64,000 nt of DNA from an uncultured Bacteroidia bacterium (GTDB lineage: Bacteria; Bacteroidota; Bacteroidia; J057; CALDDN01). Position 1 is the stretch's first letter. Each line of letters opens with the position of its first letter. The stretch covers positions 7,226 through 71,225 of the forward strand of contig CALDDN010000038.1 in the NCBI GenBank assembly GCA_937936615.1, written 5' to 3'. Both the position numbers and the translations under genes were made by a program. Below, piece by piece: positions 8,776 to 35,115 of the stretch. The notes beneath the pieces are model-generated. The model had not been told where the DNA came from. It was given only the letters and a program-made list of their open reading frames with translations, and did no database searches.

Positions 8776-9111
8776 GTGACAGGACACTGGATGATTCTCA
8801 CAGTTTTTTGAGCGCATCGGGGCATTCGGTTTCGCTGTTCTCGCACCTGCGCCCTTCGGTCTGATTTCCACAAGGACTTTCCGCTTATCTGGTCGATGCC
8901 CGCCCATAGGATGTGAAATGCAGGGTCGAAGAACGGGTCGAACGGTTGCTGAACAATGCGCACGGTTCAAACTAAATCGCTCGATTTTCCGTTTTAAGCG
9001 TGTTTCAACACCAAAGTCTAGGTTCAGCATTGCGACTCCTTGATTAGCTTTGATGGGCCAAAAGCTCAGTTTTCGATCCCAAAACCTGGGGCCGCAGCCA
9101 CGGCCCGCCCT

Positions 9112-10236: not shown

Positions 10237-10242
10237 GCCGCC

Positions 10243-16460: not shown

Positions 16461-16533
16461 CGCTTTTGCGTGGCGTATGAACTTTTGCCGCAGGCAGAAG
16501 CTTATATTTTCATTCACAAAAGAAAAAGTAGGC

Positions 16534-18027: not shown

Positions 18028-18847
18028 CCGCACGGCCAATAGGTGCAGCCGGCTCATCACCCGAGCCTACAGTACCTCCTTTTCGCTGGGAATCCGCTGT
18101 CTGGCCCGTCGGCATCACGCCTCCATCTACGCCATTTACGGCTTTGTGCGCTTAGCCGACGAAATCGTCGATACCTTTCATGAGCATGATAAGGCCGGTC
18201 TGCTGCGCCGGTTCCGGGAGGAGACCTTCCGCAGCATCGAGGAGGGGATTTCGCTCAATCCGGTGTTGCAGGCTTTTCAGGAGGTCGTGCGTCAGTACCG
18301 CATCCCGCTCGATTTGATCGAGGCTTTTTTGCACAGCATGGATATGGATCTGCGGCCCATGCACTACAACGACACCCTTTATAATCAGTATATCTACGGT
18401 TCGGCCGAGGTTGTGGGGCTGATGTGCCTGTGCGTGTTCTGCGAGGGCGACACCGCCCGCTACGAAAGCCTCAAGCCAGCAGCCCGCCGCCTGGGTGCGG
18501 CCTTTCAGAAGGTCAATTTTCTGCGTGATCTGCGGGCCGATTACAACGAGCGGGGACGTGTCTATTTTCCGGGAGTCGATTTGGCCTGTTTCACCGAGGC
18601 CGACAAGCGGCGGATCGAGCAGGATATCGCCGAGGACTTCAAAGCCGCATACGAGGGCATCGTGCGCCTGCCAGCTACCGCCCGCTTTGGGGTCTATGTC
18701 GCCTACATCTATTACCTGAAGCTCTTTGATAAAATCCGCCGCGCTCCCATCGAACGGGTGCTGCAGGAACGCATCCGCATCTCCAACACGCGGAAGTTTC
18801 GCCTGCTGGTGCAGTCGTGGTTCCGCTACCAGCTCAAAACCATCTGA
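17996..18847 (+). CDS. crtB: phytoene synthase
   Basis: 283 aa with squalene/phytoene synthase motifs (YGFVRLADEIVD, YIYGSAEVVGLM, ...NFLRDL..D). The start is either 17996 or 18014; both overlap the end of crtI. Confidence 0.9.
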   Translation: MTTASSMQLYSRTANRCSRLITRAYSTSFSLGIRCLARRHHASIYAIYGFVRLADEIVDTFHEHDKAGLLRRFREETFRSIEEGISLNPVLQAFQEVVRQYRIPLDLIEAFLHSMDMDLRPMHYNDTLYNQYIYGSAEVVGLMCLCVFCEGDTARYESLKPAARRLGAAFQKVNFLRDLRADYNERGRVYFPGVDLACFTEADKRRIEQDIAEDFKAAYEGIVRLPATARFGVYVAYIYYLKLFDKIRRAPIERVLQERIRISNTRKFRLLVQSWFRYQLKTI

Positions 18848-19569
18848 TGACCAACCAAGCCTGGGTATACTTCTGGCTCGATGCAGGTACGGTGCTGCTG
18901 CCTCTGCTGCTGTCTTTCGATCGCAAGGTGCACTACTACCGCCGTTTCCGGTACCTGATTCCGGCAATTGTGCTGCCGTTGATCCCTTTCGTAGTCTGGG
19001 ACTGGCTTTTTACTGAAGCAGGCATCTGGTGGTTCAGCGACGTATATACCTTGGGCCTGAAGATCGGACCGCTGCCGCTCGAGGAGTGGGGCTTTTTCGT
19101 GGCGGTACCCTTCGGCTGCCTTTTCGTCTACGATTGCCTCAATCGCTGGCTGCCGTGGGAAAACGACGGCCCGTGGGTTCGGCGAGGCACGCTCTGGGCC
19201 ATTGGGTTGGTGCTTTTTATTGGTCTGCTGTTCTATGAGCGGCTCTACACCTCGGTAACGGCGGTATCGTTTGCCTCAGCTTGGGGGCTGCATCTCGCCC
19301 TGCACGGCTGGCAGTGGGCGGGCCGCGTCTGGCGGGCATGGGCCGTGTGCCAGATTCCGTTTTTTGCTGTCAATGGCGTACTGACCAGCCTGCCCGTCGT
19401 TTTTTACAACGACAGTCAGAACCTGGGCCTGCGCATAGGCAGTATCCCTGCTGAGGATACCTTTTATGGTATGACTTTGTTCTTACTTAATGTAACGGTC
19501 TATGAATACGTCCAGCGACGCGCCGGCCTACCTGCCCCCGGTTCGACCCGCGCAAACGTGGCTGCGTGA
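18847..19569 (+). CDS. fused lycopene-cyclase-domain protein (CrtYc/Yd-type)
   Basis: ATG 18847 overlaps the crtB stop (tgATGa). Two membrane half-domains are present, with the motifs PLEEWGFF and IPAEDTFYG. Confidence 0.8.
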   Translation: MTNQAWVYFWLDAGTVLLPLLLSFDRKVHYYRRFRYLIPAIVLPLIPFVVWDWLFTEAGIWWFSDVYTLGLKIGPLPLEEWGFFVAVPFGCLFVYDCLNRWLPWENDGPWVRRGTLWAIGLVLFIGLLFYERLYTSVTAVSFASAWGLHLALHGWQWAGRVWRAWAVCQIPFFAVNGVLTSLPVVFYNDSQNLGLRIGSIPAEDTFYGMTLFLLNVTVYEYVQRRAGLPAPGSTRANVAA

Positions 19570-20236
19570 GTGGGGCGGCCTGCTTGTGGCGGCGACGGTG
19601 CTGGTTTTATGGGGGCTGTGCCTGAGGGCCGGTCTGCAGGCCGAGCACAACTGGGCCGGTCCGTGGCCCTATGTTCTCATCCTGATTCAGACGCATCTTT
19701 ACGCGGGAGTTTTCATCACGGCGCACGATGCGATGCACGGTACCGTACACCGCAACCCGCGGGTTAACGCCGCTGTCGGCTGGCTTTGTGCCACACTCTT
19801 TGCCTATAACTGGTATCCGCGCCTGCTGCGCAATCACCACGCCCACCACCGCCACGTGGGTACGCCCGACGATCCCGACGTACATCCCGCCTCCTTGCCC
19901 CTCTGGTATTTCCGGTTTCTGAAAGAATACCTGACGTGGCCGCAGTTTGTGCTTATGGCTCTGACCTTCAACGGGCTGAAGCTGATATTTCCGGTCGAAA
20001 ATGTGATTCTGTTCTGGATGGTGCCGGCTATTGTGGCAACTTTCCAGATTTTCTACTTTGGCACTTACATGCCCCACCGTGCTGCTCCCGACAACGTCCA
20101 TCGCTCGCGAACCCTCCGGCGCAATCACCTGTGGGCGTTTCTGAGCTGCTATTTTTTTGGCTATCACTACGAGCATCACGCCTCGCCCGGTACGCCCTGG
20201 TGGCTGCTCTGGCGGTTGAAACAGGCCAGGTATTAA
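19502..20236 (+). CDS. crtW: beta-carotene 4-ketolase (membrane fatty-acid-desaturase family)
   Basis: Histidine boxes HDAMHG, HHAHHRH and HYEHHASP, in a ~240-aa membrane protein inside the crt cluster. It overlaps the cyclase gene by 68 nt. Confidence 0.8.
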   Translation: MNTSSDAPAYLPPVRPAQTWLREWGGLLVAATVLVLWGLCLRAGLQAEHNWAGPWPYVLILIQTHLYAGVFITAHDAMHGTVHRNPRVNAAVGWLCATLFAYNWYPRLLRNHHAHHRHVGTPDDPDVHPASLPLWYFRFLKEYLTWPQFVLMALTFNGLKLIFPVENVILFWMVPAIVATFQIFYFGTYMPHRAAPDNVHRSRTLRRNHLWAFLSCYFFGYHYEHHASPGTPWWLLWRLKQARY

Positions 20237-20306: not shown

Positions 20307-21407
20307 ATGGTTGGTCTGCGCTTCTCCGAATACCGGCCCGACGACTCGGGCCAAACAACCTTCGATAAGCTGCTCAAGCTTTTCATGCAGCTGCTGGTCT
20401 ACACCAACGGCGATGCCGCCGAAGCTCTTAGCTGGATGAATCAGTTGGACAAGCAATACGGCTTGACAACCAACGAGTACGGCATGGGCGACTTCATTGA
20501 CGACCTGAAAGCCAAAGGCTATCTACAGGAAAACCCCAGCGAAGCCGGTACCTTCACCCTGACTGCCCGCAGCGAGAAAACCATTCGTCAGCAAGCCTTG
20601 GAAGAGATTTTCGGCAAGCTGCGTAAAAAATCGCCCGGTGGCCACCAGACCAGTTACACGGGCCTGGGGGAGGAAGCCACCGCCGACCAGAGGCCCTATC
20701 AGTTCGGCGATGCCCTCGATAACGTCCTGATGACCGAATCGATTCGTAACGCTCAAGTCAATCACGGTATAGGGGAATTTACCTTGACGGAAAACGACCT
20801 CGAAGTGGCCGAGACCGAGTTCAAGACGCTGACCTCGACAGTGCTCATGATCGACATCTCGCACTCGATGATCCTTTACGGCGAAGACCGCATCACCCCT
20901 GCCAAAAACGTGGCCATGGCCCTGGCCGAACTCATCACCACGCGTTATCCCAAAGACAAGCTCGATATCCTCGTATTCGGAAACGATGCCTGGGCCATTG
21001 AGATCAAAGACCTGCCCTATCTGCAGGTAGGCCCCTACCACACCAATACGGTGGCAGGTCTGGAACTGGCCATGGACCTGCTGCGCCGTCGCAAAACGCA
21101 CAACAAGCAGATTTTCATGATCACCGACGGCAAGCCGACCTGCCTCAAAGAAAATGGACGGTACTACAAAAACAGCTTCGGCCTCGACCGTAAGATCGTC
21201 AACCGAACCCTCGATCTGGCAGCCCAGTGCCGACGGCTCAAGATTCCGATTACTACTTTTATGATCGCCCGAGACCCCTATCTGCAGCGGTTTGTCAAGG
21301 AGTTTACCGAGACCAACAATGGCCGCGCCTTCTACTCGAGTCTCGATGGACTGGGTGAATACATTTTCGAAGACTACATCCGCAACCGCCGCCGCCGCGT
21401 GCGCTGA
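20307..21407 (+). CDS. VWA domain-containing protein
   Basis: 366 aa with a MIDAS-like motif, MIDISHSM. The VWA fold occupies the C-terminal two thirds. Confidence 0.8.
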   Translation: MVGLRFSEYRPDDSGQTTFDKLLKLFMQLLVYTNGDAAEALSWMNQLDKQYGLTTNEYGMGDFIDDLKAKGYLQENPSEAGTFTLTARSEKTIRQQALEEIFGKLRKKSPGGHQTSYTGLGEEATADQRPYQFGDALDNVLMTESIRNAQVNHGIGEFTLTENDLEVAETEFKTLTSTVLMIDISHSMILYGEDRITPAKNVAMALAELITTRYPKDKLDILVFGNDAWAIEIKDLPYLQVGPYHTNTVAGLELAMDLLRRRKTHNKQIFMITDGKPTCLKENGRYYKNSFGLDRKIVNRTLDLAAQCRRLKIPITTFMIARDPYLQRFVKEFTETNNGRAFYSSLDGLGEYIFEDYIRNRRRRVR

Positions 21408-21432
21408 ACCCATTTTTTCTGTTAAACCGAGC

Positions 21433-22965
21433 ATGAATCCCACTCCGGTTGCTCCGCTGGTCAATGGCCAGCATCCTCTCGCCCCCGCTCACCTGCCGCG
21501 CACCCTGGGTGCCCTGCGAGCCAGCGGTTACCGTCCCCGCAGCGTCAAAGACGAGCTGCGCGAGAACCTGCTGGCTGCCCTGCGCGAACGGCGGCCCCTT
21601 TTTACAGGCATTCTGGGCTACGAAGACAGCGTGCTGCCCGAGCTGCAGACAGCTGTGCTGGCGCGACACAATATCCTGCTGCTGGGCTTGCGCGGCCAGG
21701 CCAAAACCCGCATAGCCCGCCAGCTCACCGAGCTGCTCGACGAGTGGACCCCCATCGTCGAAGGATCGGAACTGAACGACGACCCCCTCGAGCCAGCCTC
21801 GCGGATGGCCCGCGACCTGATCGCCGTGCACGGCGACGATACCCCCGTAGCCTGGCTGCACCGTTCCGAACGCTATGTCGAGAAACTGGCTACGCCCGAT
21901 GTCTCGGTGGCCGACCTCATCGGTGATGTAGACCCCATCAAAGCAGCCACGCTCAAGCTGCCTTATTCCGATGAGCGGGTTATCCATTATGGCCTCGCTC
22001 CTCGGGCCAATCGCTGTATTTTCGTGCTCAACGAGCTGCCCGACTTGCAGCCCCGCATTCAGGTGGCTCTCTTCAACCTGCTGCAGGAACGCGACCTGCA
22101 GATCCGTGGCTTCAAAATGCGCCTGCCCGTCGACGTGTGTTTCGTTTTCACAGCCAACCCCGAGGACTATACCAACCGTGGGTCGATTGTTACGCCCCTC
22201 AAAGACCGGATTGAGAGCCAGATTCTGACGCACTACCCCAAACAGGTAGAAATTGGAATGCAGATCACGAAGCAGGAAGCTGAACTGGCACCGGCCCAGC
22301 ACGAGCGCGTGCGCTGCCCCGAGCTGATCGCTGAATTGGTGGAGCGCATCGCTTTTGCAGCCCGCGAAAGCGAGTACGTCGATCCCAAAAGCGGGGTTTC
22401 GGCCCGCCTGACCATCGCCGCCTACGAACTGGTCTATGCGGCAGCCGAGCTGCGCCTGATGCACAGCGGCGAGGCAAAGACGCAACTGCGTTTGCTCGAT
22501 CTGTATGCGGCTGTGCCTGCCATCACAGGCAAAATTGAGCTGGTCTACGAGGGCGAGCAGGAAGGCCCCCTCCAGGTGGCTCTCTCACTCATCAATAAGG
22601 CCATCAAGGCCGCTTTCGTGCAGCACTTTCCCGACCCCGAAAAAGTAAAGCGGGCCAAGAAACCCAATCCCTACGAAAAAGTCATCGAGTGGTTCAACAG
22701 CGGCCACACCCTCGATCTGCTGCGCCAGTCTACCGACCGCGACTACCAGCAAGCCCTTGAGTCGGTTCAGGGCCTGTCCGATCTGGTCTCCTTTTATTGC
22801 AAGGGCATCGATTCGGTCGATCGTCCGGTCTACATGGAACTGCTGCTCAATGGCCTGGCAGAGTTCTCGCAGATCAGCCGCCAACGTTTGGTCAAAGGTT
22901 TTGCCTTCAAGGACATGCTGGGCAGTCTCTTCAAAGGTGGCAGCCTCGACGACGAGGACGAGTAA
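21433..22965 (+). CDS. AAA+ ATPase, ChlI/Mg-chelatase-like
   Basis: Starts at ATG 21433 (MNPTPVAPL). Has a variant Walker A (LLLGLRGQAKT), a Walker B region (IFVLNELPDL), and the ...LLQERDLQIRGF... pattern of ChlI-type ATPases. The track start at 21292 overlaps the VWA gene. Confidence 0.8.
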   Translation: MNPTPVAPLVNGQHPLAPAHLPRTLGALRASGYRPRSVKDELRENLLAALRERRPLFTGILGYEDSVLPELQTAVLARHNILLLGLRGQAKTRIARQLTELLDEWTPIVEGSELNDDPLEPASRMARDLIAVHGDDTPVAWLHRSERYVEKLATPDVSVADLIGDVDPIKAATLKLPYSDERVIHYGLAPRANRCIFVLNELPDLQPRIQVALFNLLQERDLQIRGFKMRLPVDVCFVFTANPEDYTNRGSIVTPLKDRIESQILTHYPKQVEIGMQITKQEAELAPAQHERVRCPELIAELVERIAFAARESEYVDPKSGVSARLTIAAYELVYAAAELRLMHSGEAKTQLRLLDLYAAVPAITGKIELVYEGEQEGPLQVALSLINKAIKAAFVQHFPDPEKVKRAKKPNPYEKVIEWFNSGHTLDLLRQSTDRDYQQALESVQGLSDLVSFYCKGIDSVDRPVYMELLLNGLAEFSQISRQRLVKGFAFKDMLGSLFKGGSLDDEDE

Positions 22966-24382: not shown

Positions 24383-24769
24383 TCAAGTTAATGAAAAATT
24401 CGACCGCCTGCTCCGATTGGGGCAGGCTTTTTTGTTTGAATAACAAAAATAGATACTGCGATCAGTCATCCTGTGCCGGCAGGTGCCGTATTTTTTGAAG
24501 AGCGGAACACCAGTTATTCGGCCTGATTCGTACCTACTAGTAACAATTTCGATCATATAAGCCATAAAGAATGACTTCGGCTCGTGTCCTTGATGAATCG
24601 CCTTGCAGTCAAGGTTGTATGTGTCCGATTCAGAAAATGGTATTGCCGCTGTGTCTACCTCGTACGGAGCTATCAATCTTTCGACGGACGAGTAAAGCTG
24701 TTGGACGTGCAAGCCGCCCACGATATTCCCTGAGGAGTTTCTGGGGCCACTGTCAAACGTCAGTCCCAA
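24383..24769 (-). CDS. hypothetical ORF, or a gene remnant, in the AT-rich flank
   Basis: This 128-aa ORF is the only sizeable one in the 24.4-25.1 kb spacer. I recognise no motif. Its 3' end overlaps the plus-strand terminator. It may be non-coding. Confidence 0.2.
   Translation of the reverse strand: MGLTFDSGPRNSSGNIVGGLHVQQLYSSVERLIAPYEVDTAAIPFSESDTYNLDCKAIHQGHEPKSFFMAYMIEIVTSRYESGRITGVPLFKKYGTCRHRMTDRSIYFCYSNKKACPNRSRRSNFSLT
24404..24438 (+). terminator. intrinsic terminator
   Basis: gcctgc (24406-24411) pairs with gcaggc (24422-24427), followed by ttttttgttt. Confidence 0.7.
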
Positions 24770-25120
24770 GCTCCTTTAAGGCAGTTCTGCTGGACAAATT
24801 CATCGTGCTCCCAGAGCCGGCAGAACCTTAAGACCGCCGGCAATGCTCTGTTGATTTTTCGGTTGCTTGGCTCAACTCAGCCAGCGAAGCAAAGGTTCTT
24901 CCCTTTGAACTCCTGCCAAGTCTGCCAGACCGTCGCCTTTTTGTATACTCTAACGTTGACATGTATTGGCCAACCTATGTTTCGTTTCCTGTTTTTATAG
25001 GAACCGGTGTTGATTTTTAAACCGATGAAAAAAAGTTTTACTTTTAGGGTATCCCTTTTGAAAAGGAATAAATGTCTTTCAAAAAAATAAAATCAGACTG
25101 AGCAGTTACTTTTGCAGAAT

Positions 25121-28100
25121 ATGAATGCATTTCAGGCGCATAGCGAAATCATTGAACTATACCGTTCTTACCTGAACAGCTTTGTAAACATCGCCGATGC
25201 TGACATCAAAGAGCGGGTCAACCATGAGCTGACTGATCCCTCGCGGCTGTTGCCCGAGCCACTGATCAACTTCAATCCTGACTACCAAGTCGGCGGTTCG
25301 ACTGCCGAGCTGATTGCCCAACAGGTGCTGCATCCCGAATTGGGGAATGTCTTTCCAAATTACGCCCTCCACCGGCACCAAGTGGAAGCCATCCGGCTTG
25401 GTCGTGCCGGTCAGAGCTTCGTGGTTACTTCGGGTACGGGGTCGGGCAAATCGCTGACCTATCTGGCGACGGTGTTCGATGACTTGTTCCGCAACCCCAA
25501 CCAGAAAGGCGTTGTAGCCCTGCTCGTCTATCCGATGAATGCCCTGATCAACTCGCAGGAGCGAGAGATCAAGAAGTACGTCGAAGACTACTGCAAGCTG
25601 ACGGGTCGCTCCTTTCCGATCACCTTTGGCAAGTACACCGGTCAGGAGGGAGAGGAAGAGCGAGCAAAACTTCAGGAAACCCCGCCGCAGCTGCTGCTGA
25701 CCAACTACATGATGCTGGAACTAATCCTGACGCGGGTACAGGAGCAGCGGATTGCCCGTGCTATCGATCAAAACATTAAGTACTTGGTTTTCGATGAGTT
25801 GCACACCTACCGTGGCCGTCAGGGTACGGACGTAGCGATGCTGGCTCGGCGCATTCGCGCTCAGGCGTTGCGGAAGGCGGAACTGGTCTGTATCGGAACC
25901 TCCGCTACTCTGGCAACAGGAGACGCCGCCCGATCGCCTCGTGCGGAAGCCGCGCGGGTAGCGCAGGAATTTTTCGGCATTCCCTTTACCGAGGATCAGG
26001 TGGTGCTCGAGACCCTGACTCGTTCGTTTTCGCAGGTGTCTGTTTCAAACGATGAACTGCGCGAGGCCGTCGCCCGCCTGCAGCAGCCCCGCTCCGATGC
26101 CAATGAAGCCGAACTGAAAACCAATGCGCTGGCTGCCTGGATCGAGAACAACATCAGTCTGGAAGTCGGCCCTGACGGATGGTTGAAGCGTGGCAAGCCC
26201 TGCACCCTCCAGGAAATTGCCGACCGGTTGGCTGGCGATGGGGGCATCGACCCTAAGGAAGGCAAGGAGGCCATCAAAAACCTGCTCGATTGGGCCCTGC
26301 GGGTCAACATCGGCCTCAAAGATCGCAAGCCGCGCAAATCGTACCTGCCTTACCGGCTGCATCAGTTCATCCAGCAGACGGGCAACGTCTACTTGACACT
26401 GGAGGCTCCCGGGCAGCGGCACATCCAGATGGATGAGCAACTGACTGTCGAACGCGTGAATGGCCAGAAGCTGCCGCTGTTTCAGGCGGCGTTCAGTCGT
26501 CTGACAGGCCAGACCTTCATTTCGGTGCGGTGGGACATCCAGTCGAAGCGGCTGCTGGCCCAGCCCTTTGATGAGCTTTACTTTGATGATGATGAAAACG
26601 AAAACGAAACTTCCGGCGACAGCAAGCCGCAGCGGGGCTACCTGATCCTGCAGCCGGCTGATGAGGAAGATTTATGGAAGGATGAAGACCTCGAAATCCT
26701 GCCGCCGAGCTGGTTTTCCGAATCGAAAAAAAAGGGGGTCGTGCTCAAGAAAGACAAGCAGAAATTGCTGCCTCAAAAATTGTGGTTCGATGCCCGTGGA
26801 GCAACCTATGCTCACGAAGGGGAGGGCCGCCTGGCGGGCTGGTTTGTCAGTTACCCGCTGACCATCGATCCGACGGCCAAGGTCGTCTACGAATCGGCCA
26901 GACGACGCTCGCGCGAGATCGATGTCCTTTCGAACGTGGGCCTCGATGCCCGGAGCACGGCCAATACCCTGCTCAGCTACCTGGCGGTGCAGGTTCAAAG
27001 CAGGCACCTGGGAGACCTGAACTCGTCCAAGGTTCTCTGCTTTGTCGATTTTCGGCAGGATGCCTCGCTGCAGGCGGGCCACTTCAACGACTTTGTACGG
27101 ACGGTATCGCTGCGCTCGGCTCTGCTGAAGGCCGTCCGGCAGGCCTCCCCCGATCAGCCCGTTAAAATGAGCAACGTCGGCCAGCATCTGTTCGACCAGC
27201 TCGATCTGCCGTTCCTGGAATACGCCGATCAAAGCGAAGAAATAGAAGAAGGACCTTTGCGAAAGAGTTACGAGAAGCAACTAAAAGAATTTTTATTCTA
27301 TTGGGCCGTTAGCGACTTGCGGCTGGCGTGGCGGGTGGCTATGCCCAACCTGGAACAGACCGCTCAGGTACGCATCGCATACGAAAAGCTGGATCAGGTG
27401 CTTGCGGAGGCTGCTTTCTCAGAAAAGCTGGCCCAAAGCCTCTGCGTGGAGCTGACCGACCAAAATCGGTCGAAGATCTGCGACATGGTCTGCGATACCC
27501 TCGATTATTTCCGCAGATCGTTTGCTATCAGCTATGATCCTTACAAAAACCTGCTACTACTCCATAATTTCTTTAAACATTTCGATAAGTTGAATGATGA
27601 CTGGTCGCCCGATGAGGATGAAAAGCCAGAGCCGCTGTGCGCGTTTTACATCGAAAAAGACAAGACAGCCAAAGCGATTAAAGAGGCGAAAAACTACGTG
27701 CTGCTGAGCATCGGTTCTCATTCAAATTACGGACGATACTTCAGGCGAACCTATCGCGACCTGACGGGATCATCGCTCGATAAAACGAACTACGGCCTCG
27801 TTCTCAAAAACTTTCTGGGGGTTATGTGTAGGGGCGGTTTTCTGAAAAAAATTGAATTGAAGAGCGATGGCCCGGAAGTGCAGTATATTTACCAGTTGGA
27901 TGGGTCGCTCATTGAGTGGGTGGCAGGCGATGGGCAGACGCCCTACCATGATCACGTGCGTGTACCCGTCAAAAATCCGAATTTTAAGCCTCCGGCTCCC
28001 AATGCGTTCTTTCAGCGGCTTTACAGCGAGGGGATCCAGCTCAATACCAAACTCAAGGCCAAGGAGCACACGGGTCAGATTGACAAAGCTACCCGAGAAC

Positions 28101-30460
28101 AATTGGAAAAAGATTTCAGGGATGGAATACTGAAGGTGCTCTATTGTTCGCCAACGATGGAGCTGGGCATCGATATTTCGGATTTGAATGTCGTTCAGCT
28201 GCGCAACGTGCCGCCCAACCCTGCCAACTACGCCCAGCGGTCAGGGCGGGCCGGTCGGAGCGGGCAGGCGGCCATCGTTTTTACCTACTGCTCGCGCTAC
28301 AGCGCTCACGACCAGCACTATTTCCGTAACAAGCTCGACATGGTCGCCGGTCAGGTGAAACCGCCTGTATTCGACTTTACAAACGAGGAACTTCACCGTA
28401 CGCATCTGCGTGCCATGTGTCTGCCCTTTCTTCAGATCGAGATGAGCAGGTCGGTGGCTCAGGTCATCGATGACAACTTCATTAATAAAAAGGGGCAACG
28501 CACCTTTCCGGTTAAAGCAGAGACGGCCTCCATGCTGGCTAAACTCAAGGATTCCCAAGACCGAAGCACCATTCGGACCAACTTCAGGGAGGTAGTCAAA
28601 GACATGAAGCAACAGCTTGACCAAACATCCTGGTACCGTCCCGACTGGTTCGATCAGCAGATCAACCGCCTCGATAAAGATTTCGATGAGGCCTTCAATC
28701 GCTGGCGCGATCTCTACCGTGCTGCTTTGAAACTGATGCAGGAAGCCCTCGAGGCACTTCATGACCCGACCATTCCCAGCAGCGACGAGCGAAAGAGGGA
28801 GGCCCAACGTAACTACCGATACGCCCAGTGGCAGATCGATCTGCTGCGCAATTTTTACAATGCGGACGATCGGGCAGGCCATGCTGCAGAGGCGAAAGCC
28901 CGGAACAGAAGCCATAGCGCTACGATTTCGGGGTTTCTGCCCCATCGCTACTTGGCGGCCGAGGGTTTTCTGCCGGGCTACAATTTCACGCGGCGGCCCA
29001 TTTACCTGACGCTGCGGGGTGGCAAATCGGGCGATGGCGAGATCATCGACCGACCCAGCTTCATCGCTCTGCGCGAAGCCGGCCCCGACAACTTCTTTTA
29101 CCACAAGGGCCGCAAGTATCAGTTCAAGTACATGTCCTGGAAGCCCGAAGACAAGTTAGCCCGCGACCTGCGCCTGACCCTAACCATGGGTATAGTTCTC
29201 GATGAGAGCAGCCGAAGCCTCAACAACTGCCCCTTGACTGGCGAAGACCTTTCGCAGGGCAGCAGTACCAAATGGGTACGAGGAGTCGTGGAATTCGGAG
29301 CCTCGAGTGCCAATGTCCGCCAGCGCATCAACTGCACCGAAGAGGAACGCATGCAGGCCGGCTACGAGATTCAGACCGCTTTTGCTCTCGACCGTCAGGG
29401 CGACAGCCATGTGACGCTGCTCGTACGCAATGCGAAAGACGGCGAACTGGCCCGTATCTTTTTTATCCCGGGGGCACGCATCTACCAGATCAGCCACGGC
29501 TGGAAACGCGACAGGGCCGGCGCGGAAAACCTGGGGGGCTTTCACATCGACTCCTCCAGAGGGGGGCTTTGGGTCAGCGCATCCAAGCTCAAAGAGTATA
29601 GGGAGAACAAGGGATACCGCGGCGACCGCGACTCCATTCATAACATCAAGCTCTATGTCGATCGAACGGCGGATGCGTTGGTTGTAAAACCATCATCAGA
29701 TAATCTGGCCCTGCAGGACGAAGGTGGTTTTGGGGCGATCCGCTCTTTGCTCTACGCCTTTCTTAAAGGATTGGAAAACACCCTTAATGTCGAACCGCGT
29801 GAGCTGGCAGGCGACCTCGTGGGTACTTCCAACCTGCTCGTTTACGAAGCTGCCGAAGGCAGCATGGGGCTGCTGCGGCAGTTTGCCCAGTTCCCCAGCC
29901 GGTTGCGGGGGGTGTTCGAGGCGGCCCGCAGGCTCTGCGCCCTCGATGCCGAATCCCTGCAGGACGAAGAACTGCAACGCACGCGCGGTGATGCCTCTTA
30001 CCTCGACCTGCTCGATTTCAGCAACCAACTTTACCACAGATTCATCAGCCGGCGGGTTATCGCTGAAGCCCTTGATCGGCTCTGCACGGCCGAGTACCTG
30101 CTGCTCCAGGACGGCGAGCGTGATACCAACCAACATTACCGACACCTGCTCGAACGCATCGACCCGAATTCGGAAGGCGAAAAGCGTTTCCTCGACTACC
30201 TGATCCGCCACAATCTGCGTTTACCCGACGAAGCCCAGGCTCTCATTCCCGAATGCAATGTCAAACCAGATTTCCTGTATAGGAAAGAGTACACTGCTCT
30301 GTTTGTAGATGGCAAACCCCACGACCGGAGCGATGTGCAGGCCGAGGATCAGATCAAACGCCGCTGCCTCGAAAACCAGGGCTATCGTGTGCTCAGCTGG
30401 CACTATCTGACCGATTTGAGCGATTTCATTAATCAAAACAAGTCGCTTTTTGATCAATAA
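25121..30460 (+). CDS. giant SF2 DExH helicase with a DUF1998 (MrfA/DrmB-type) domain and a C-terminal PD-(D/E)xK-like nuclease module
   Basis: Walker A GTGSGKS (25433-25453), DELH (25793-25804), IGTSATL, motif VI QRSGRAGR (28235-28258). DUF1998-like landmarks run from GFLPGYNF to RINCTEEERMQAGYEI to LVYEAAEGSMGLL (~28950-29890). The C-terminus has KPDF followed 12 residues later by VDGKPH (30263-30322), then an ...GYRVLSW tail. First ATG is 25121; a TTG lies at 25112. Confidence 0.9.
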   Translation: MNAFQAHSEIIELYRSYLNSFVNIADADIKERVNHELTDPSRLLPEPLINFNPDYQVGGSTAELIAQQVLHPELGNVFPNYALHRHQVEAIRLGRAGQSFVVTSGTGSGKSLTYLATVFDDLFRNPNQKGVVALLVYPMNALINSQEREIKKYVEDYCKLTGRSFPITFGKYTGQEGEEERAKLQETPPQLLLTNYMMLELILTRVQEQRIARAIDQNIKYLVFDELHTYRGRQGTDVAMLARRIRAQALRKAELVCIGTSATLATGDAARSPRAEAARVAQEFFGIPFTEDQVVLETLTRSFSQVSVSNDELREAVARLQQPRSDANEAELKTNALAAWIENNISLEVGPDGWLKRGKPCTLQEIADRLAGDGGIDPKEGKEAIKNLLDWALRVNIGLKDRKPRKSYLPYRLHQFIQQTGNVYLTLEAPGQRHIQMDEQLTVERVNGQKLPLFQAAFSRLTGQTFISVRWDIQSKRLLAQPFDELYFDDDENENETSGDSKPQRGYLILQPADEEDLWKDEDLEILPPSWFSESKKKGVVLKKDKQKLLPQKLWFDARGATYAHEGEGRLAGWFVSYPLTIDPTAKVVYESARRRSREIDVLSNVGLDARSTANTLLSYLAVQVQSRHLGDLNSSKVLCFVDFRQDASLQAGHFNDFVRTVSLRSALLKAVRQASPDQPVKMSNVGQHLFDQLDLPFLEYADQSEEIEEGPLRKSYEKQLKEFLFYWAVSDLRLAWRVAMPNLEQTAQVRIAYEKLDQVLAEAAFSEKLAQSLCVELTDQNRSKICDMVCDTLDYFRRSFAISYDPYKNLLLLHNFFKHFDKLNDDWSPDEDEKPEPLCAFYIEKDKTAKAIKEAKNYVLLSIGSHSNYGRYFRRTYRDLTGSSLDKTNYGLVLKNFLGVMCRGGFLKKIELKSDGPEVQYIYQLDGSLIEWVAGDGQTPYHDHVRVPVKNPNFKPPAPNAFFQRLYSEGIQLNTKLKAKEHTGQIDKATREQLEKDFRDGILKVLYCSPTMELGIDISDLNVVQLRNVPPNPANYAQRSGRAGRSGQAAIVFTYCSRYSAHDQHYFRNKLDMVAGQVKPPVFDFTNEELHRTHLRAMCLPFLQIEMSRSVAQVIDDNFINKKGQRTFPVKAETASMLAKLKDSQDRSTIRTNFREVVKDMKQQLDQTSWYRPDWFDQQINRLDKDFDEAFNRWRDLYRAALKLMQEALEALHDPTIPSSDERKREAQRNYRYAQWQIDLLRNFYNADDRAGHAAEAKARNRSHSATISGFLPHRYLAAEGFLPGYNFTRRPIYLTLRGGKSGDGEIIDRPSFIALREAGPDNFFYHKGRKYQFKYMSWKPEDKLARDLRLTLTMGIVLDESSRSLNNCPLTGEDLSQGSSTKWVRGVVEFGASSANVRQRINCTEEERMQAGYEIQTAFALDRQGDSHVTLLVRNAKDGELARIFFIPGARIYQISHGWKRDRAGAENLGGFHIDSSRGGLWVSASKLKEYRENKGYRGDRDSIHNIKLYVDRTADALVVKPSSDNLALQDEGGFGAIRSLLYAFLKGLENTLNVEPRELAGDLVGTSNLLVYEAAEGSMGLLRQFAQFPSRLRGVFEAARRLCALDAESLQDEELQRTRGDASYLDLLDFSNQLYHRFISRRVIAEALDRLCTAEYLLLQDGERDTNQHYRHLLERIDPNSEGEKRFLDYLIRHNLRLPDEAQALIPECNVKPDFLYRKEYTALFVDGKPHDRSDVQAEDQIKRRCLENQGYRVLSWHYLTDLSDFINQNKSLFDQ

Positions 30461-30473
30461 GTTTATTTTTCAA

Positions 30474-33400
30474 ATGAAGAAAAAAGAAAACAGATCAAGA
30501 TCAATAGAAGAGCTACAGGGCAAGCTGCCACCCGGATCGATTGTCCGCTGCTGGAACCGGCTCTGGATTCTGCTGCCTGAATCAGATTCTGATTTGCAGA
30601 CGCTTCGCCCCTTGCTGGGCAACGAGGCCGAAGCTGTTACGCTTTGGGATCAGGCATTGATCCAGCCTGTCATTCGCCCCGATAAGTTCCCGTTGCCTCG
30701 GCTCGATGTGCATTTAGCCGATTTTGCTTCGGCCCAGCTGCTCATGGATGCGGCCCGGCTGCTGGTACGCGATGCCGCCGGCCCATTCCGTTCGGTTACG
30801 CGGCTGGCTTTCCGTCCGCGGGCTTACCAGTTCGTGCCCCTGTTGCTGGCTCTGCGCCAGCTCAAGTCCAATCGCCCGATTCGCCTGCTCATCGCCGATG
30901 ATGTGGGCATCGGCAAAACGGTTGAAGCTCTGATCATTGCCCGGGAGCTTTACGACCGGTACCTCATCCGTCGCCTGGCGGTGATCTGTCCGCCCCACCT
31001 GTGCGAGCAGTGGCAGGCCGAGCTGCGCGACAAGTTCGGTCTGCAGGCCGAGGTGCTGCGGGCGACGACCATTGGCCGCCTCGAACGCCAGTATCCCGGT
31101 GGAGGCATGCACCTGCTGGGTCGCGTACCCATTCAGGTGATTTCGGTCGATTACCTCAAGGGTAAAGCCGATAACGACCAGCTGATGCAGATCTTCACCA
31201 GCCAGGGACCTGAGCTGGTCATTGTCGACGAGGCTCACAGCTGCGCGAAACCCGAATCGGCTGTTTCAGCCAACCAGCACCAACGCTATCGTCTGCTCAA
31301 TCACCTGGCCCGACACGAGCAACGCCCCAAACACCTGATCCTGCTCACTGCTACCCCTCACAGCGGCAAGGCTGCCGAATTCCGTTCGCTGCTAGCCCTG
31401 CTGCATCCCGATCTGGAAAACTACGACCCTGCTATCGAAGCCCACTCCGATGGCGGGAATGTCGGGCTGCTGGCCAATCACTTCATTCAGCGGCGACGCG
31501 AGGACGTTCAGGCTCAGAGCAGCGAGGACAGCAATCTTTTCCCCAAACGGGTATCCAGCGACCAGAAATACGAATTAACTCCCAATTACGAACGGCTGTA
31601 TTACAGACTCATCGACTGGGCAAGATTAGAAATGAAAGATAAACCTTCCGGTAGTGCGATAGACGCTAAAACTAAATTCCGCTACTGGACTTTACTGGCC
31701 ATTCTGCGCGGGGCACTTTCCAGTCCTGAAGCTGGTCTGGCCATGGTACAAAACCGCCTCCGCAGCACCCAAGTCCCCGATTCAGTTGATGACCACCTGC
31801 TATCGTCCGCTACTAATCCTCACGGCGATTCGGATGAGGGCTTCGATTCGGATGCCGAACCTGCCTTTGCCGATCAGCCGACCCTCGCCGACCCTTCCAA
31901 AGCTTTGCTCGAAAGCATTGCCGATCAGCTTGCCAAAATTGCCCAATTCGACCAAGACGGTAAAGCTCTAGAAGACGGTAAAGCTCAAAAAGCTCGCACC
32001 GTGCTTTTTGAGTGGCTTCAGAGGGACATCCAGCCCATCGTCTTTTGTCGCTACATCAAAACGGCCCACTACCTCAAACGGCTGCTGGAACCGGCTCTCA
32101 AAAAGTATTTCCCTGAGCTGCAGGTCGAGGTCATCACCTCAGAAATGAACGAAGAGCAACGCCGTGAACGCATTCGCGATCTGGGAGCTGCCCCCAAACG
32201 TCTACTGATCGCTACCGACTGCCTTTCTGAGGGTATCAACCTGCAGGAATTCTTTACGGGGGTGCTCCACTACGACCTTCCCTGGAACCCTAACCGCCTC
32301 GAGCAGCGTGAGGGACGCATCGACCGCTATGGCCAGACGGCCCCCGAGGTCCACACCGCTATGCTGATCGGCGAAAACAACCCTGTCGACCACATTATCT
32401 ACGGTGTGCTGCTGAAGAAAGTAGAGCAAATCCGCCGCGATAGTGGCATCGTGATTCCTTTTGCTGAATCCGACCGTTCGATCGTCGATGAAATGCTTAA
32501 GGTTATCGTCGAGGACCCGCGCTTTACGTGGCAAAAAGGGCCTGGTAAGCAGACTAGCCTGCAGCTCGACGATTACAAGCTTTCATCCCAGCTCTCGCAG
32601 CGCTTCCAGGATGCTGAAAAAGCTTCTGCCACCGAAAAACGTCTTCGCAAAAAGCTGGCCCACCTCCAGGATGCCGCCCGCCTCGAGCTCACGCAGGAAC
32701 TTGAAGAACTCGATCGCCTGCTTGGCACACCCAAGACGGTCGAACAACTGGTTCGTGCCTACCTGAGCCGGAAGCAGGTAACCATTAAGGACGGCCCTCA
32801 TCGAACTTTTACTTTTTCCCGGCCCAATTTTGATTCCCGTCACCCCGATTACCGGGTTTTCTGCAGCCTGCCCGAAGGTCCGGTACGCTACTCGTGCTAC
32901 TCGCCTACTCCGCCCCAAACGGTCTACCTGGGCCGAAACCATCCCTTCGTGGAGCTGGCTGCCCGCCAGCTGATCGATCAGGCTTACCGTGAGGCTAACA
33001 TCGCGCCTTCCAAGGACCTGCTCACGGCTCGCCTGGCTGTTGTACGCACCCGCACCGTCAGCCGACGCACGATCGTGGCTTTGCTGCGTCTGCGCCTGCT
33101 CATTCAGCCGAAAAGTGGTGGGAAACCCCTCTACGCCGAAGAAATTTTCCCCTGGGCCTTCATACCGCCCGATAACCCGGACAAACCTTTTGAAGTGCTG
33201 GACCAGGAGGCGGCACGCAAGCTCTTCGAATCGGCAACATCCGATCAACCGGTACCTCAAGATCAGCAACGGTGGCTCCTCGAGCCGGTACTGGGCTGGT
33301 TTGCAGCTGCACAGACGGGTGAAAATATTAAAGCCGTTTCCGATCCCGATGCCCGCCAGCTCACCCGCTGGCTGACACAGCACTTGCCCCGTCAGCGCAC

Positions 33401-33530
33401 CAAACACCTTATCGATCGCTACCGTCGACAGGCCAACTTGTTGGATGAATCGGCTTACCGCCCCTTTGGTTCCTGGGTGCCTGCCGATGCTTTGGGTATC
33501 TATCTTCTACTGCCTGCATTGAGCGGCTAG
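30474..33530 (+). CDS. SNF2/RapA-family helicase-like ATPase with a long uncharacterised C-terminal region
   Basis: LLIADDVGIGKT (K codon 30915-30917), VIVDEAHS (DEAH 31226-31237), LLTATPHSGK, LIATDCLSEGINLQ, HYDLPWNPNRLEQREGRIDRYGQ (32304-32336). It starts 13 nt after the upstream stop; an alternative TTG at 30450 overlaps that stop. Confidence 0.9.
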   Translation: MKKKENRSRSIEELQGKLPPGSIVRCWNRLWILLPESDSDLQTLRPLLGNEAEAVTLWDQALIQPVIRPDKFPLPRLDVHLADFASAQLLMDAARLLVRDAAGPFRSVTRLAFRPRAYQFVPLLLALRQLKSNRPIRLLIADDVGIGKTVEALIIARELYDRYLIRRLAVICPPHLCEQWQAELRDKFGLQAEVLRATTIGRLERQYPGGGMHLLGRVPIQVISVDYLKGKADNDQLMQIFTSQGPELVIVDEAHSCAKPESAVSANQHQRYRLLNHLARHEQRPKHLILLTATPHSGKAAEFRSLLALLHPDLENYDPAIEAHSDGGNVGLLANHFIQRRREDVQAQSSEDSNLFPKRVSSDQKYELTPNYERLYYRLIDWARLEMKDKPSGSAIDAKTKFRYWTLLAILRGALSSPEAGLAMVQNRLRSTQVPDSVDDHLLSSATNPHGDSDEGFDSDAEPAFADQPTLADPSKALLESIADQLAKIAQFDQDGKALEDGKAQKARTVLFEWLQRDIQPIVFCRYIKTAHYLKRLLEPALKKYFPELQVEVITSEMNEEQRRERIRDLGAAPKRLLIATDCLSEGINLQEFFTGVLHYDLPWNPNRLEQREGRIDRYGQTAPEVHTAMLIGENNPVDHIIYGVLLKKVEQIRRDSGIVIPFAESDRSIVDEMLKVIVEDPRFTWQKGPGKQTSLQLDDYKLSSQLSQRFQDAEKASATEKRLRKKLAHLQDAARLELTQELEELDRLLGTPKTVEQLVRAYLSRKQVTIKDGPHRTFTFSRPNFDSRHPDYRVFCSLPEGPVRYSCYSPTPPQTVYLGRNHPFVELAARQLIDQAYREANIAPSKDLLTARLAVVRTRTVSRRTIVALLRLRLLIQPKSGGKPLYAEEIFPWAFIPPDNPDKPFEVLDQEAARKLFESATSDQPVPQDQQRWLLEPVLGWFAAAQTGENIKAVSDPDARQLTRWLTQHLPRQRTKHLIDRYRRQANLLDESAYRPFGSWVPADALGIYLLLPALSG

Positions 33531-33536
33531 GGCCGT

Positions 33537-33570
33537 GGCTATTGCATGGCTTTAATAGCCTTATTTTTAT
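33537..33570 (+). terminator. weak terminator-like hairpin after the SNF2 gene
   Basis: ggctat (33537-33542) pairs with atagcc (33555-33560), followed by ttattttta. Confidence 0.4.
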
Positions 33571-33670
33571 CTGAAGTTCAGTTTTCTATACAAATTTTTT
33601 TAAAAAAATTATCCTGTGTCGTATTGAGCAGGGCAAGGGATGTCGGATTTTGAACGTTGTCCTCAATCTT

Positions 33671-33694
33671 TAATGCTTCTATTAATGCTTCTAT
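33671..33694. repeat. perfect tandem duplication of a 12-mer
   Basis: taatgcttctat occurs at 33671-33682 and again immediately at 33683-33694. Confidence 0.9.
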
Positions 33695-33791
33695 GTATGA
33701 TTCAAAGGCGGCTTTCACCGTAAGCCGTTGATGTTTGAAGCGAATCACCGGTGGCCGGGTTTATCTTTTTCTTGAGCCGTCCGTTTCGGCC

Positions 33792-34955
33792 TCAATCGGG
33801 AGCAACGGTGCCCGTTCCTTCGACACGCAGTCGGCGTGCCAGTTCCCGGGCCTTTGCCAAGGCTCCATCCAGCGAGGGGTCGATGATGGTCAGGTGGCCC
33901 ATCTTGCGGCCTGGGCGAACTTCACGCTTGCCGTAGAGGTGGAGTTTGACCCCTTCCATGGCTAAAGCTTCTTCGATACCTGCGTAGCGAGGCTGTCCGG
34001 TGGCACCCTCCGAGCCGACGAGGTTCAACATGACAGCCGGCAGGCGCAGGGCCGGCGAACCCAGTGGCAGCCCCAGTACTGCCCGCAGGTGCTGCTCGAA
34101 CTGGGAAGTCAGGTTGGCTTCGATGGTATGATGGCCGCTGTTGTGGGGGCGGGGAGCCAGCTCGTTGACCCAGAGCCAGCCGGCCCGATCGACGAAAAAC
34201 TCCACGGCCAGCAGGCCTACGACGCCCAGCCGTTCGGCGATGTGCAGGGCCGTTCGCTCGGCTTCACCCAGCAAGGGATCGGGCAGCCGGGCGGGGGCGT
34301 AGAGCAGCTGCACCAGGTTGCGGACCGGGTCGAAGACCATATCGACGGGGGGGTAGACGCTCATCTGGCCGCAGGCGTTGCGGGCGGCTACCACGCTGAT
34401 CTCGTGGGCGATGTCGACGCGGCGTTCCAGTACGGACGGTGCATCGAAAGCGGTCTCCAAATCGACGGGCGTATCGAGTCGCATGACGCCCCGTCCGTCG
34501 TAGCCACCGCGCCGCAGTTTCAGTATGCCCGGCAGGCGGTCGGTATGGCGGGCGAGGTCGCGGCGGTTTTCGACGAGTACAAAGTCGGCTGTGGGAATGC
34601 CTTCGCGCTGAAAAAACAGTTTCTGTTGGCCCTTGTCCTGAACGGTACCTACGACCGTAGCCGCGGGGTGGACACTGCGGCCTTCAGCTTCCAGCTGGGC
34701 CAGGGCCTCGGTGGCTACATCCTCGATTTCCAGCGTCAGAACATCGACCTGCCGTCCGAAATCGAGGACGGCAGCGGGGTCGCGGAAGCTACCGCCGACA
34801 AAGCGATGCGCGAACGGGCGGGCGGGTGCATTCGGGTCGGGGTCGAGTACCCAGGTTTCGACGCTGAAATCGGCACAGGCTTGCAGAAGCATGCGCCCCA
34901 GCTGGCCCCCCCCCAGGATGCCCAGCTTCAGGCCTGAGTAGAATGCTGGCTTCAT
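33792..34955 (-). CDS. purK: 5-(carboxyamino)imidazole ribonucleotide synthase
   Basis: Starting at the internal ATG (cat at 34953-34955) gives MKPAFYSGLKLGILGGGQLGRML. ATP-grasp pattern throughout. Confidence 0.9.
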   Translation of the reverse strand: MKPAFYSGLKLGILGGGQLGRMLLQACADFSVETWVLDPDPNAPARPFAHRFVGGSFRDPAAVLDFGRQVDVLTLEIEDVATEALAQLEAEGRSVHPAATVVGTVQDKGQQKLFFQREGIPTADFVLVENRRDLARHTDRLPGILKLRRGGYDGRGVMRLDTPVDLETAFDAPSVLERRVDIAHEISVVAARNACGQMSVYPPVDMVFDPVRNLVQLLYAPARLPDPLLGEAERTALHIAERLGVVGLLAVEFFVDRAGWLWVNELAPRPHNSGHHTIEANLTSQFEQHLRAVLGLPLGSPALRLPAVMLNLVGSEGATGQPRYAGIEEALAMEGVKLHLYGKREVRPGRKMGHLTIIDPSLDGALAKARELARRLRVEGTGTVAPD

Positions 34956-35115
34956 GGAACAAAGGTACGACCCGCGCGTGGGCCTTGGCCTAAGGCTGCG
35001 ACCTGAAATTGAATTTGCCAAAAATATGTTGTATTTGTTTTTTGTATGTTAATTTATTGGGATTAAGTAATTGAATTTTGATTCTGGTTTCAACTTTTAC
35101 TTTGTAAATTCAGGA

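Follow-up and report, generated by a model that had tools for sequence, protein, structure and literature searches.

What kind of protein joins a helicase motor, a cysteine-poor DUF1998 domain and a nuclease in a single chain, and to which system does it belong? The question is raised by a gene in a 64,000-nucleotide stretch of DNA from an uncultured Bacteroidia bacterium (assembly GCA_937936615.1, contig CALDDN010000038.1, positions 7,226 to 71,225), hereafter the window. A sequence-only reading, made without database searches, had flagged a segment of this DNA as a DUF1998 domain coupled to a nuclease. That segment makes up the C-terminal third of the product of an armC-like gene (25121..30460, + strand), which, by its ORF (open reading frame) and translation, encodes a YprA-family DExH helicase followed by an OB-CON-DUF1998 module and a Vsr-like nuclease. 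We conclude that the protein is very probably an ArmC-type helicase-nuclease of type I of ARMADA (the disARM-related Antiviral Defense Array), present here in a two-gene ArmC-ArmA derivative that secondarily lost the methyltransferase ArmB.

A YprA-family helicase among ARMADA type I proteins

The gene lies in an ORF of 1782 codons that opens with a TTG at 25112 and ends at 30460 on the + strand; residues are numbered from this TTG. The likely start is the ATG at 25121, where the tblastn alignments of relatives begin, and it gives a product of 1779 aa. The eight strings quoted in the sequence-only reading all fall in this one frame: GFLPGYNFTRRP at aa 1285 (nt 28964), NNCPLTG at aa 1371, RINCTEEERMQAGYEI at aa 1405 and LVYEAAEGSMGLLRQF at aa 1576 in the DUF1998 region, and RFLDYLIRHNLRLP at aa 1692, KPDF at aa 1718, VDGKPHD at aa 1732 and IKRRCLENQGYRVLSW at aa 1748 in the nuclease region. 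The region that it began at 28950 is real, and the codon boundary lies one base away, at 28949.

The motor comprises a RecA1 / DEAD domain at aa 88-268 (25373..25915, +; Pfam PF00270, E 1.1e-22) and a RecA2 / Helicase_C core at aa 978-1051 (28043..28264, +; Pfam PF00271, E 3.1e-15). Both the Walker A motif (GTGSGKS) and the DExH motif (DELH) can be read intact from the translation. In sequence searches the protein matches MrfA/YprA (6znp_A) at E 1.3e-19, and its core is that of a superfamily 2 DExH helicase of the YprA family. The top PDB sequence matches are the helicases 9tu7_Y (2108 aa) and 9wae_A (1970 aa), both probably DruE proteins of Druantia.

Relatives are numerous. The C-terminal 503 aa retrieved 87 homologs, ~63 of them at 100% coverage and ~35% identity, and species-representative genomes contain at least 554 relatives. 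We retrieved 80 genome loci with patterns built from zinc-less sequences, and 61 full-length sequences were aligned. Gene calls for some relatives are irregular: the ArmC gene of locus L001 (6063-11221) is called as two ORFs of 865 and 844 aa, calling is likewise irregular in the ArmC region of locus L002 (6897-12214), and some relatives have just the C-terminal part called. Most database matches to ArmC are fragments of <900 aa, which could be genuine split genes or the result of frameshift or assembly errors.

In a neighbour-joining tree of ArmC homologs only, the protein is sister to a sequence from a Bacteroidales metagenome-assembled genome (L003) and stands among homologs that all lie in ArmC-ArmA-ArmB operons. 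Table S1 of Bell et al. (bioRxiv 10.1101/2025.09.15.676423) lists one homolog, from Pedobacter hartonius (L026, FNRA01000007.1), under 'ARMADA Type I helicase'. The tree and this entry place the protein among those classed as ARMADA type I, and its family membership, domain identities and conserved catalytic residues are established by the present analysis.

A Vsr-like nuclease at the C-terminus

The last ~100 residues had been proposed to be a DUF559/Vsr-like nuclease in the same chain as the motor, and profile comparison bears this out. The module spans aa ~1684-1782 (30161..30457, +) and is supported by Pfam, hhalign, a structural model and conservation. A 32-sequence profile of it (A3) aligns by hhalign with E. 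coli YcjD, a DUF559 protein, at E 1.7e-4 and with E. coli Vsr at E 0.022, keeping the register PDF, (F/E)xDG..H(D), D..R..L...G(Y/W).V. The Pfam DUF559 model matches 12 of 73 relatives at E <= 0.01 (best E 1.6e-5), and several homologs carry the JGI label 'very-short-patch-repair endonuclease'.

Five residues are invariant in all 61 full-length sequences: D1720 (nt 30269), D1733-G1734 (nt 30308), H1737 (nt 30320) and D1746 (nt 30347). R1750 and F1731 are each kept in 60 of 61. Strong conservation extends over S1687, E1690, L1704-P1705-D1706, A1708-Q1709, P1719-D1720-F1721, F1731, D1733-G1734, H1737-D1738, D1746, R1750 and G1757. These residues can be mapped onto the active site of Vsr, in which D51 is a magnesium ligand and H69 the general base, together with F62, H64 and D97 (PMC3239194): D1720 corresponds to D51, F1731 to F62, D1733 to H64, H1737 to H69 and D1746 to D97.

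The sequence-only reading had seen a PD...DxK spacing, and the string is indeed present, but the reading fails because the lysine is not conserved: position 1735 is lysine in one sequence of 61, the ArmC of this locus, and threonine in 33 and serine in 22. The conserved lysine of a canonical (D/E)xK motif is thus lacking, and the Vsr-type H1737 is invariant instead. Judged by its residues, the module is Vsr-like, with a histidine as the likely general base, and not a canonical PD-(D/E)xK nuclease.

A model of the last 143 residues is confident, with a pLDDT (predicted local distance difference test score) of 91.4. Foldseek ranks RAP-type mitoribosomal proteins on top of its matches (6z1p_AS at probability 0.97, another at 0.77); the Vsr-like homing endonuclease I-Bth0305I (3r3p_B) is matched at probability 0.87 and TMt 0.55, and FAN1/VRR_NUC and TnsA come after these. 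No nuclease folds are listed for the larger model of 503 residues, because canopy and spurious glutamine synthetase alignments dominated that search. The C-terminal Vsr-type nuclease with catalytic residues that is expected of an ArmC is therefore present by sequence, and its structural support is suggestive.

Vsr, DUF559 (YcjD) and the 'EDxHD' nuclease I-Bth0305I share a restriction-endonuclease-like fold with a histidine general base, and they have in common with ArmC the register PDF ... F-x-D-G-x-x-H-D ... D..(K)R..L...G(Y/W).V. The differences are specific. H64 of Vsr is an aspartate in ArmC; DUF559 and EDxHD proteins have a glutamate at the position of Vsr F62, whereas the ArmC family has F1731 and no glutamate there; and the ArmC module lacks both the zinc site of Vsr and its intercalating tryptophans. 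The three known nucleases are free-standing, whereas that of ArmC is tethered to a 1,680-residue motor.

The canopy fold and the loss of its zinc sites

The OB-CON-DUF1998 'canopy' occupies aa ~1280-1650 (28949..30061, +), on the evidence of the AlphaFold2 model, Foldseek and the family profile. Its landmarks GFLPGYNF, RINCTEEER and LVYEAAEGS, singled out earlier as hallmarks of the family, are real landmarks, since they fall in the columns with the highest conservation in the family alignment. With the C-terminal region of this one protein as query, Pfam, NCBIfam and PDB yielded nothing above threshold (MZB E 0.017, DUF559 E 0.007-0.09, no PDB match), so that homolog profiles were required. 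Homology to DUF1998 is secure because three lines agree: the Pfam MZB/DUF1998 model matches 70 of 73 relatives at E <= 0.01 (best E 2e-11), the family profile matches 9tu7_Y at E 1.6e-7, and the model of the C-terminal 503 residues (pLDDT 88.9, predicted template modelling score 0.80) retrieves MrfA (6znp_A, E 3.2e-8) and DrmB (7s9v_B, E 7.8e-5) as its top Foldseek matches. The canopy expected of an ArmC, fused to the helicase, is thus present.

The canopy has lost its zinc ligands. The protein contains 18 cysteines (1.0%) and no CxxC. At 1% cysteine a count of zero is not surprising by chance; it is meaningful because seven homologs carry 5-7 CxxC motifs at the same positions. Across the 61 full-length sequences, 43 have none, 11 have one and the remaining seven have 5-7. 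As had been noticed, C1373 and C1408 are the sole cysteines within aa 1280-1600, but the DUF1998 zinc site lies elsewhere. The canonical four-cysteine cluster is downstream of the LVYEAAEGS motif, and alignments to the DruE protein 9tu7 and to the CxxC-retaining homologs locate its vestige at aa 1609-1632 (29936..30007, +). There the profile alignment sets 'DCSCDKFCHHCLLSY' of 9tu7 against the vestigial site and pairs 'DCSCDKFCHHCLLSYDSQ' of 9tu7 with the family pattern 'C.F....ASYddLLSYYNQ'. In the full-length alignment the seven homologs retain 'C...C..ACY(D/E)CLLSY', where ArmC has C1609...R1625...S1629-Y-L-D1632; the segment 'C..ACYxCLLSY' accordingly reads 'R..ASYLDLLDF'. C1609 is the only ligand of the four to survive, the others being replaced by R1625, S1629 and D1632. 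A four-cysteine site that might have been overlooked was therefore found in position, with three of its four cysteines substituted, and the description of the module as a DUF1998 without its zinc cluster (that of PF09369) stands.

The other knuckles have gone the same way. FCRxCGQ has become FSRLTGQ (aa 461-466), CLNCG has become DPTAK (~aa 586), and the CENCG knuckle of the OB-fold insert has become CPLTG (aa 1373). C1373 is a leftover of this last knuckle, because CPLTG aligns to CENCG of the relatives. The beta-barrel and OB-insert zinc-binding modules (ZBM) with their CxxC motifs, described for ArmC, are consequently missing, and their loss is clade-wide and not specific to this copy. In the tree the seven sequences rich in CxxC group together as one clean clade, whereas the ArmC of this locus falls on the zinc-less side. 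Of the 61 full-length sequences sampled, 54 have the DUF1998 CxxC substituted. The ratio of the two clades is biased by the retrieval of the 80 loci with patterns derived from zinc-less sequences. The zinc-less clade has replaced all its CxxC knuckles, including three of the four DUF1998 cysteines, by polar residues, and the canopy fold is predicted with high confidence to be retained despite this loss. Bell et al. (bioRxiv 10.1101/2025.09.15.676423) mention such zinc loss for Dpd only.

An SNF2 partner gene and a missing methyltransferase

The next gene begins 14 nt past the armC stop codon. It is armA-like (30474..33530, +), encodes a RapA/BrxHII/DrmD-like SNF2 helicase of 1018 aa from the ATG at 30474 (database gene call P0088, also 1018 aa), and was identified with Pfam (SNF2-rel_dom and Helicase_C), PADLOC (DpdE model PDLC02853, 413 bits; DrmD, 278 bits) and NCBIfam (DrmD, 323 bits against a cut-off of 610). 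Over aa 28-1022 the product is collinear at full length with the SNF2 gene that follows ArmC in the relatives, in which ArmA is an obligatory partner of ArmC. The locus thus has the adjacent BrxHII/RapA-like SNF2 helicase, ArmA, of ARMADA type I. The nearest ArmA relative in a protein search is ~40% identical, and scanning metagenome contigs with ArmA turned up no close relative. The armA product is ~65 aa longer than its ~950-aa relatives. An 18-nt tandem duplication (AAGACGGTAAAGCTC...) lies inside the gene at window positions 31954-31989, and a hot-spring metagenome contig has a 9-nt in-frame insertion at 31969, a linker length polymorphism of the SNF2 protein.

What follows armA in the relatives is not found here. 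Wherever the downstream DNA of a relative reaches far enough, which holds for 63 loci, the helicase gene is followed in all 63 by the SNF2 gene and then by a DrmMI/PglX-like N6-adenine methyltransferase (ArmB) of ~1,050-1,300 aa, matching DrmMI at 631 bits. This arrangement is the one published for ARMADA type I (Bell et al.), and it settles what the locus is. We searched the 64-kb window by tblastn with eight ArmB homologs and obtained noise only (best E 0.15), with no methyltransferase remnant; the 6.5 kb past the left end of the window contain no ArmB either. The PglX-like methyltransferase of a type I operon is thus absent, and this is the sole one of 64 informative loci without it. For this reason, 'complete ARMADA type I system' is not the right label for the locus. 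Because ArmC nests among ArmB-carrying relatives, the loss of ArmB is secondary, and what remains is a two-gene ArmC-ArmA derivative.

Two terminator-like hairpins, both located by a consensus scan only, bracket this unit. The first, a strong one (24406..24427, +; 9-bp stem with 7 GC pairs, and a T-run), ends the upstream DUF218/DUF697 unit before the armC leader. The second (33537..33560, +) comes 7 nt past the armA stop and stands where relatives carry the methyltransferase gene; beyond it purK (33792-35021) is convergent to armA. The hairpins on both sides and the convergent purK frame a two-gene unit, and armC and armA are apparently co-transcribed. The G+C content of the unit is 0.52-0.57, against 0.57-0.60 in the flanks. 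Flanking direct or inverted repeats that would hint at a mobile element or a deletion scar were not found; the repeat families present are short and imperfect.

Samples dated 2016 and 2023 contain near-identical sequence, and the metagenomic sources of the sequence are marine and hot-spring. At the 3' side of armA, a 249-nt Logan piece joins the gene end to the spacer, and depth is equal on the two sides (9.3 and 8.3); no sign of a chimeric join was seen there, short of proof. A minor variant has a 1-nt insertion at 33709, and a 97-nt piece over 33396-33492 is also variant, which suggests strain microheterogeneity at 33492-33711, where relatives have the methyltransferase.

Extra DNA of 1-2.7 kb separates armA from the first methyltransferase match in 16 of the 63 relatives, among them L002, L007, L012, L017, L027, L028, L038 and L039. 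The extra stretch of L002 (15175-16679) holds genes for a Fic protein and a 23S_rRNA_IVP protein. Such extra genes may be accessory insertions in ARMADA type I operons.

Weighing the assignment and its alternatives

Several results weigh against the assignment to an ArmB-less ARMADA type I derivative. On ArmC alone, Pfam stays below threshold both for DUF559 (PF04480, 16.6 bits against a cut-off of 20.6, E 0.0074) and for MZB (PF09369, 16.2 bits against 24.2, E 0.017). Foldseek gave no match of the 143-residue nuclease model below E 0.05, and none at E < 0.001, and the search of the nuclease-domain profile against PDB sequences returned no Vsr or DUF559 entry; of the profile and structural matches by which the nuclease could be recognized, the profile match to YcjD is significant and the structural ones are suggestive. 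The nearest ArmC-like sequence is a fragment of 61% identity, with no other close relative. The ArmB search covered only ~70 kb of the 74.6-kb source contig. The DNA is a metagenome assembly, and in the run that holds it the Logan contigs are interrupted at two points, 33492 (3' end of armA) and 33711 (spacer). Finally, experimental testing among ARMADA types covers type II only, and in type II defence needs a methyltransferase with its NPPW motif, so that an ArmC-ArmA pair without ArmB may be inactive.

This last point leads to the strongest alternative, that the pair is a decaying remnant whose system died with the deletion of ArmB and whose genes are drifting. Besides the essential role of ArmB and its catalytic NPPW motif in type II and its retention in 63 of 63 relatives, such an account can draw on the tree, where no terminal branch is longer than that of ArmC (0.34; median 0.16), and on the alignment, where its retention of conserved columns is third lowest among 61. 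The same columns also count against drift: of 311 that are at least 90% conserved, ArmC keeps 285 (91.6%), within the family range of 0.88-1.00. Neither ORF (1779 and 1018 codons) is interrupted, the catalytic residues of ATPase and nuclease are all in place, the unit is framed by terminator-like hairpins, and near-identical sequence recurs in samples seven years apart by date (2016 and 2023). That ORFs and catalytic motifs are intact speaks against decay being far advanced, and we regard a drifting remnant as unlikely.

A housekeeping role in DNA repair, with a helicase-nuclease resembling MrfA/MrfB, would suit the canopy, whose best structural match is MrfA, and the surroundings, with purK and an AdoHcy hydrolase as neighbours, no methyltransferase and no flanking mobile-element repeats. 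All sequence relatives, however, lie in ArmC-ArmA-ArmB operons, which Bell et al. put on the defence branch of the YprA family. The lower G+C content of the unit suggests acquired DNA, and TIGR03817 and other repair-helicase models match the helicase core only, far under their cut-offs. We hold a repair function outside defence to be very improbable.

Could the protein instead be a DruE of Druantia, from a type III-like branch with an occasional Vsr nuclease? Its top PADLOC matches are DruE3 (269 bits), followed by DruE1, DruE2 and DruE4, its best PDB sequence matches are the very large helicases 9tu7 and 9wae, and type III-like helicases sometimes bear a Vsr nuclease (Bell et al., bioRxiv 10.1101/2025.09.15.676423). 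DruE is indeed the closest branch of large YprA-family helicases by PADLOC and PDB sequence matches. Yet the PADLOC matches span only parts of the DruE models, and PADLOC v2.0 (2023) is older than ARMADA. The neighbours are DUF218, DUF697, SNF2 and purK genes, with no DruH-like or other Dru gene nearby, and the relatives lie in ArmC-ArmA-ArmB operons, one of them listed as ARMADA type I. The proteins differ as well: types I and II DruE have an inactivated C-terminal Vsr domain, type III has PLD nuclease domains and the partner DruH, and DruE keeps its zinc-binding modules, its CxC...CxxC aligning to the substituted site of ArmC. A Druantia assignment is accordingly most improbable.

Equally hard to sustain is a reading as class 1 DISARM in which DrmA is fused to DrmB and a DUF559 nuclease stands in for DrmC, the PLD nuclease. 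The DrmD matches of the neighbouring gene, the DrmMI matches of the relatives' methyltransferases (631 bits) and the structural match to DrmB point that way; but the DrmA models score 39-43 bits against 269 for DruE, the DrmD score is under the NCBIfam equivalog cut-off (323 against 610), the DISARM canopy is a separate gene and its nuclease a PLD protein, and Bell et al. split ARMADA from DISARM phylogenetically. A Dpd system, suggested by the 413-bit match of ArmA to the 'DpdE' model, was rejected: dpdA/B/C and genes for 7-deazaguanine synthesis are missing, and the methyltransferase of the relatives is DrmMI-like.

Comparison with known systems

The type I operon of ARMADA was described by Bell et al. 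(bioRxiv 10.1101/2025.09.15.676423), who place ARMADA phylogenetically apart from DISARM on the defence branch of the YprA family and report a 'predicted active Vsr-type nuclease' at the C-terminus of ArmC in types I and II. Type I has the same chain of helicase, OB-CON-DUF1998 and Vsr-type nuclease as the protein studied here and the same order, with the helicase gene first and a RapA/BrxHII-like SNF2 gene after it; homologs ~35-40% identical to our ArmC sit in canonical type I operons. It differs in three respects. Type I ArmC has the beta-barrel ZBM, the OB-insert ZBM and the four-cysteine DUF1998 cluster, all substituted here; type I has ArmB, which is neither adjacent nor elsewhere in the ~70 kb examined; and the protein studied here is a very divergent member, with the longest branch.

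Type II, from E. coli NCTC 12900 / EDL933, gives E. coli an experimentally shown, non-abortive protection against phages that needs all genes and the ATPase and methyltransferase motifs, ArmB NPPW included (PMC13463889). Its ArmC is likewise a helicase of this family, carries a fused Vsr-type nuclease and has the SNF2 partner ArmA. Its gene order is ArmA-ArmB-ArmC-ArmD, with a GajB/RelE-like ArmD, and neither this order nor ArmD is present here; nor does our ArmC have the extra inactive EEP and Vsr domains that follow the active Vsr domain in type II.

DISARM (DrmA and DrmB) and MrfA share the helicase core and canopy fold of ArmC, and class 1 DISARM has in common an SNF2 protein (DrmD) with this locus and an adenine methyltransferase (DrmMI) with its relatives. 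In DISARM, however, the nuclease is the separate PLD protein DrmC and DrmB is a separate gene, MrfA pairs with a separate exonuclease MrfB, and both systems keep the four-cysteine zinc site. The sequence-only reading was thus right that the fusion differs from DrmAB with DrmC and from MrfA with MrfB. The novelty that it implied is outdated: the architecture is already known as that of ArmC, the signature protein of ARMADA, named in 2025. ARMADA carries no label yet in PADLOC v2.0 or Pfam, and older knowledge would take the architecture as new.

Other features of the window

A carotenoid biosynthesis cluster lies at 14901-20236. Two of its genes encode phytoene-desaturase-like amine oxidases; a phytoene synthase lies at 17996-18847, a protein with a lycopene cyclase domain at 18817-19569, and a fatty-acid-desaturase-like protein that may be a carotene ketolase or hydroxylase at 19502-20236. 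An efflux pair of an HlyD-family membrane-fusion protein and an AcrB-type RND transporter is found at 9040-13473, and a VWA-domain protein followed by a MoxR/AAA_5-type ATPase at 20307-22965, their listed ORFs overlapping by ~115 nt. Three tandem giant ORFs of 2305, 2636 and 2568 aa fill 37086-59825; the first has DUF7948, SprB repeats and a C-terminal sorting domain of the type IX secretion system (T9SS), which indicates large secreted adhesins and points to a host of Bacteroidota or Rhodothermota type.

Proposed mechanism and meaning

We infer helicase and nuclease activity and a role in defence for the ArmC-ArmA pair, and the mechanism outlined here is drawn by analogy with MrfA, DrmAB, DruE and the genetics of ARMADA type II. 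Type III DruE is a helicase-coupled nuclease that is activated on forked DNA and acts at junctions of duplex and single-stranded DNA. By analogy, ArmC would load on single-stranded or forked DNA, where its two RecA domains would translocate using ATP and the OB-CON-DUF1998 canopy would close over the DNA strand during translocation. The tethered Vsr-type nuclease would then cut or nick the DNA engaged by the motor, with D1720 and D1733 binding magnesium, H1737 acting as the general base and D1746 contributing. ArmA, which resembles a translocase on double-stranded DNA, would help target engagement. Where the system is complete, ArmB presumably serves to mark self DNA or to license the complex, like PglX in BREX.

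A pair without ArmB could be inactive, could rely on a methyltransferase encoded elsewhere, or could work independently of methylation. That ArmC-ArmA is a functional ARMADA derivative free of both methyltransferase and zinc appears doubtful on present evidence. Since type II defence requires the methyltransferase, the intact pair is either a snapshot of a system in decay or a hint of a stand-alone core.

The locus without a methyltransferase is a mildly new point, as is the clade-wide loss of zinc knuckles in ArmC, which offers a natural experiment on the purpose of the zinc modules; both are relevant to work on ARMADA, Druantia and DISARM. If the pair is functional, a core of a helicase-nuclease and an SNF2 protein could recognise foreign DNA and destroy it, or process DNA that is damaged, with no need for ArmB-dependent methylation, and the multiple zinc knuckles of defensive YprA helicases would be dispensable for fold and function.

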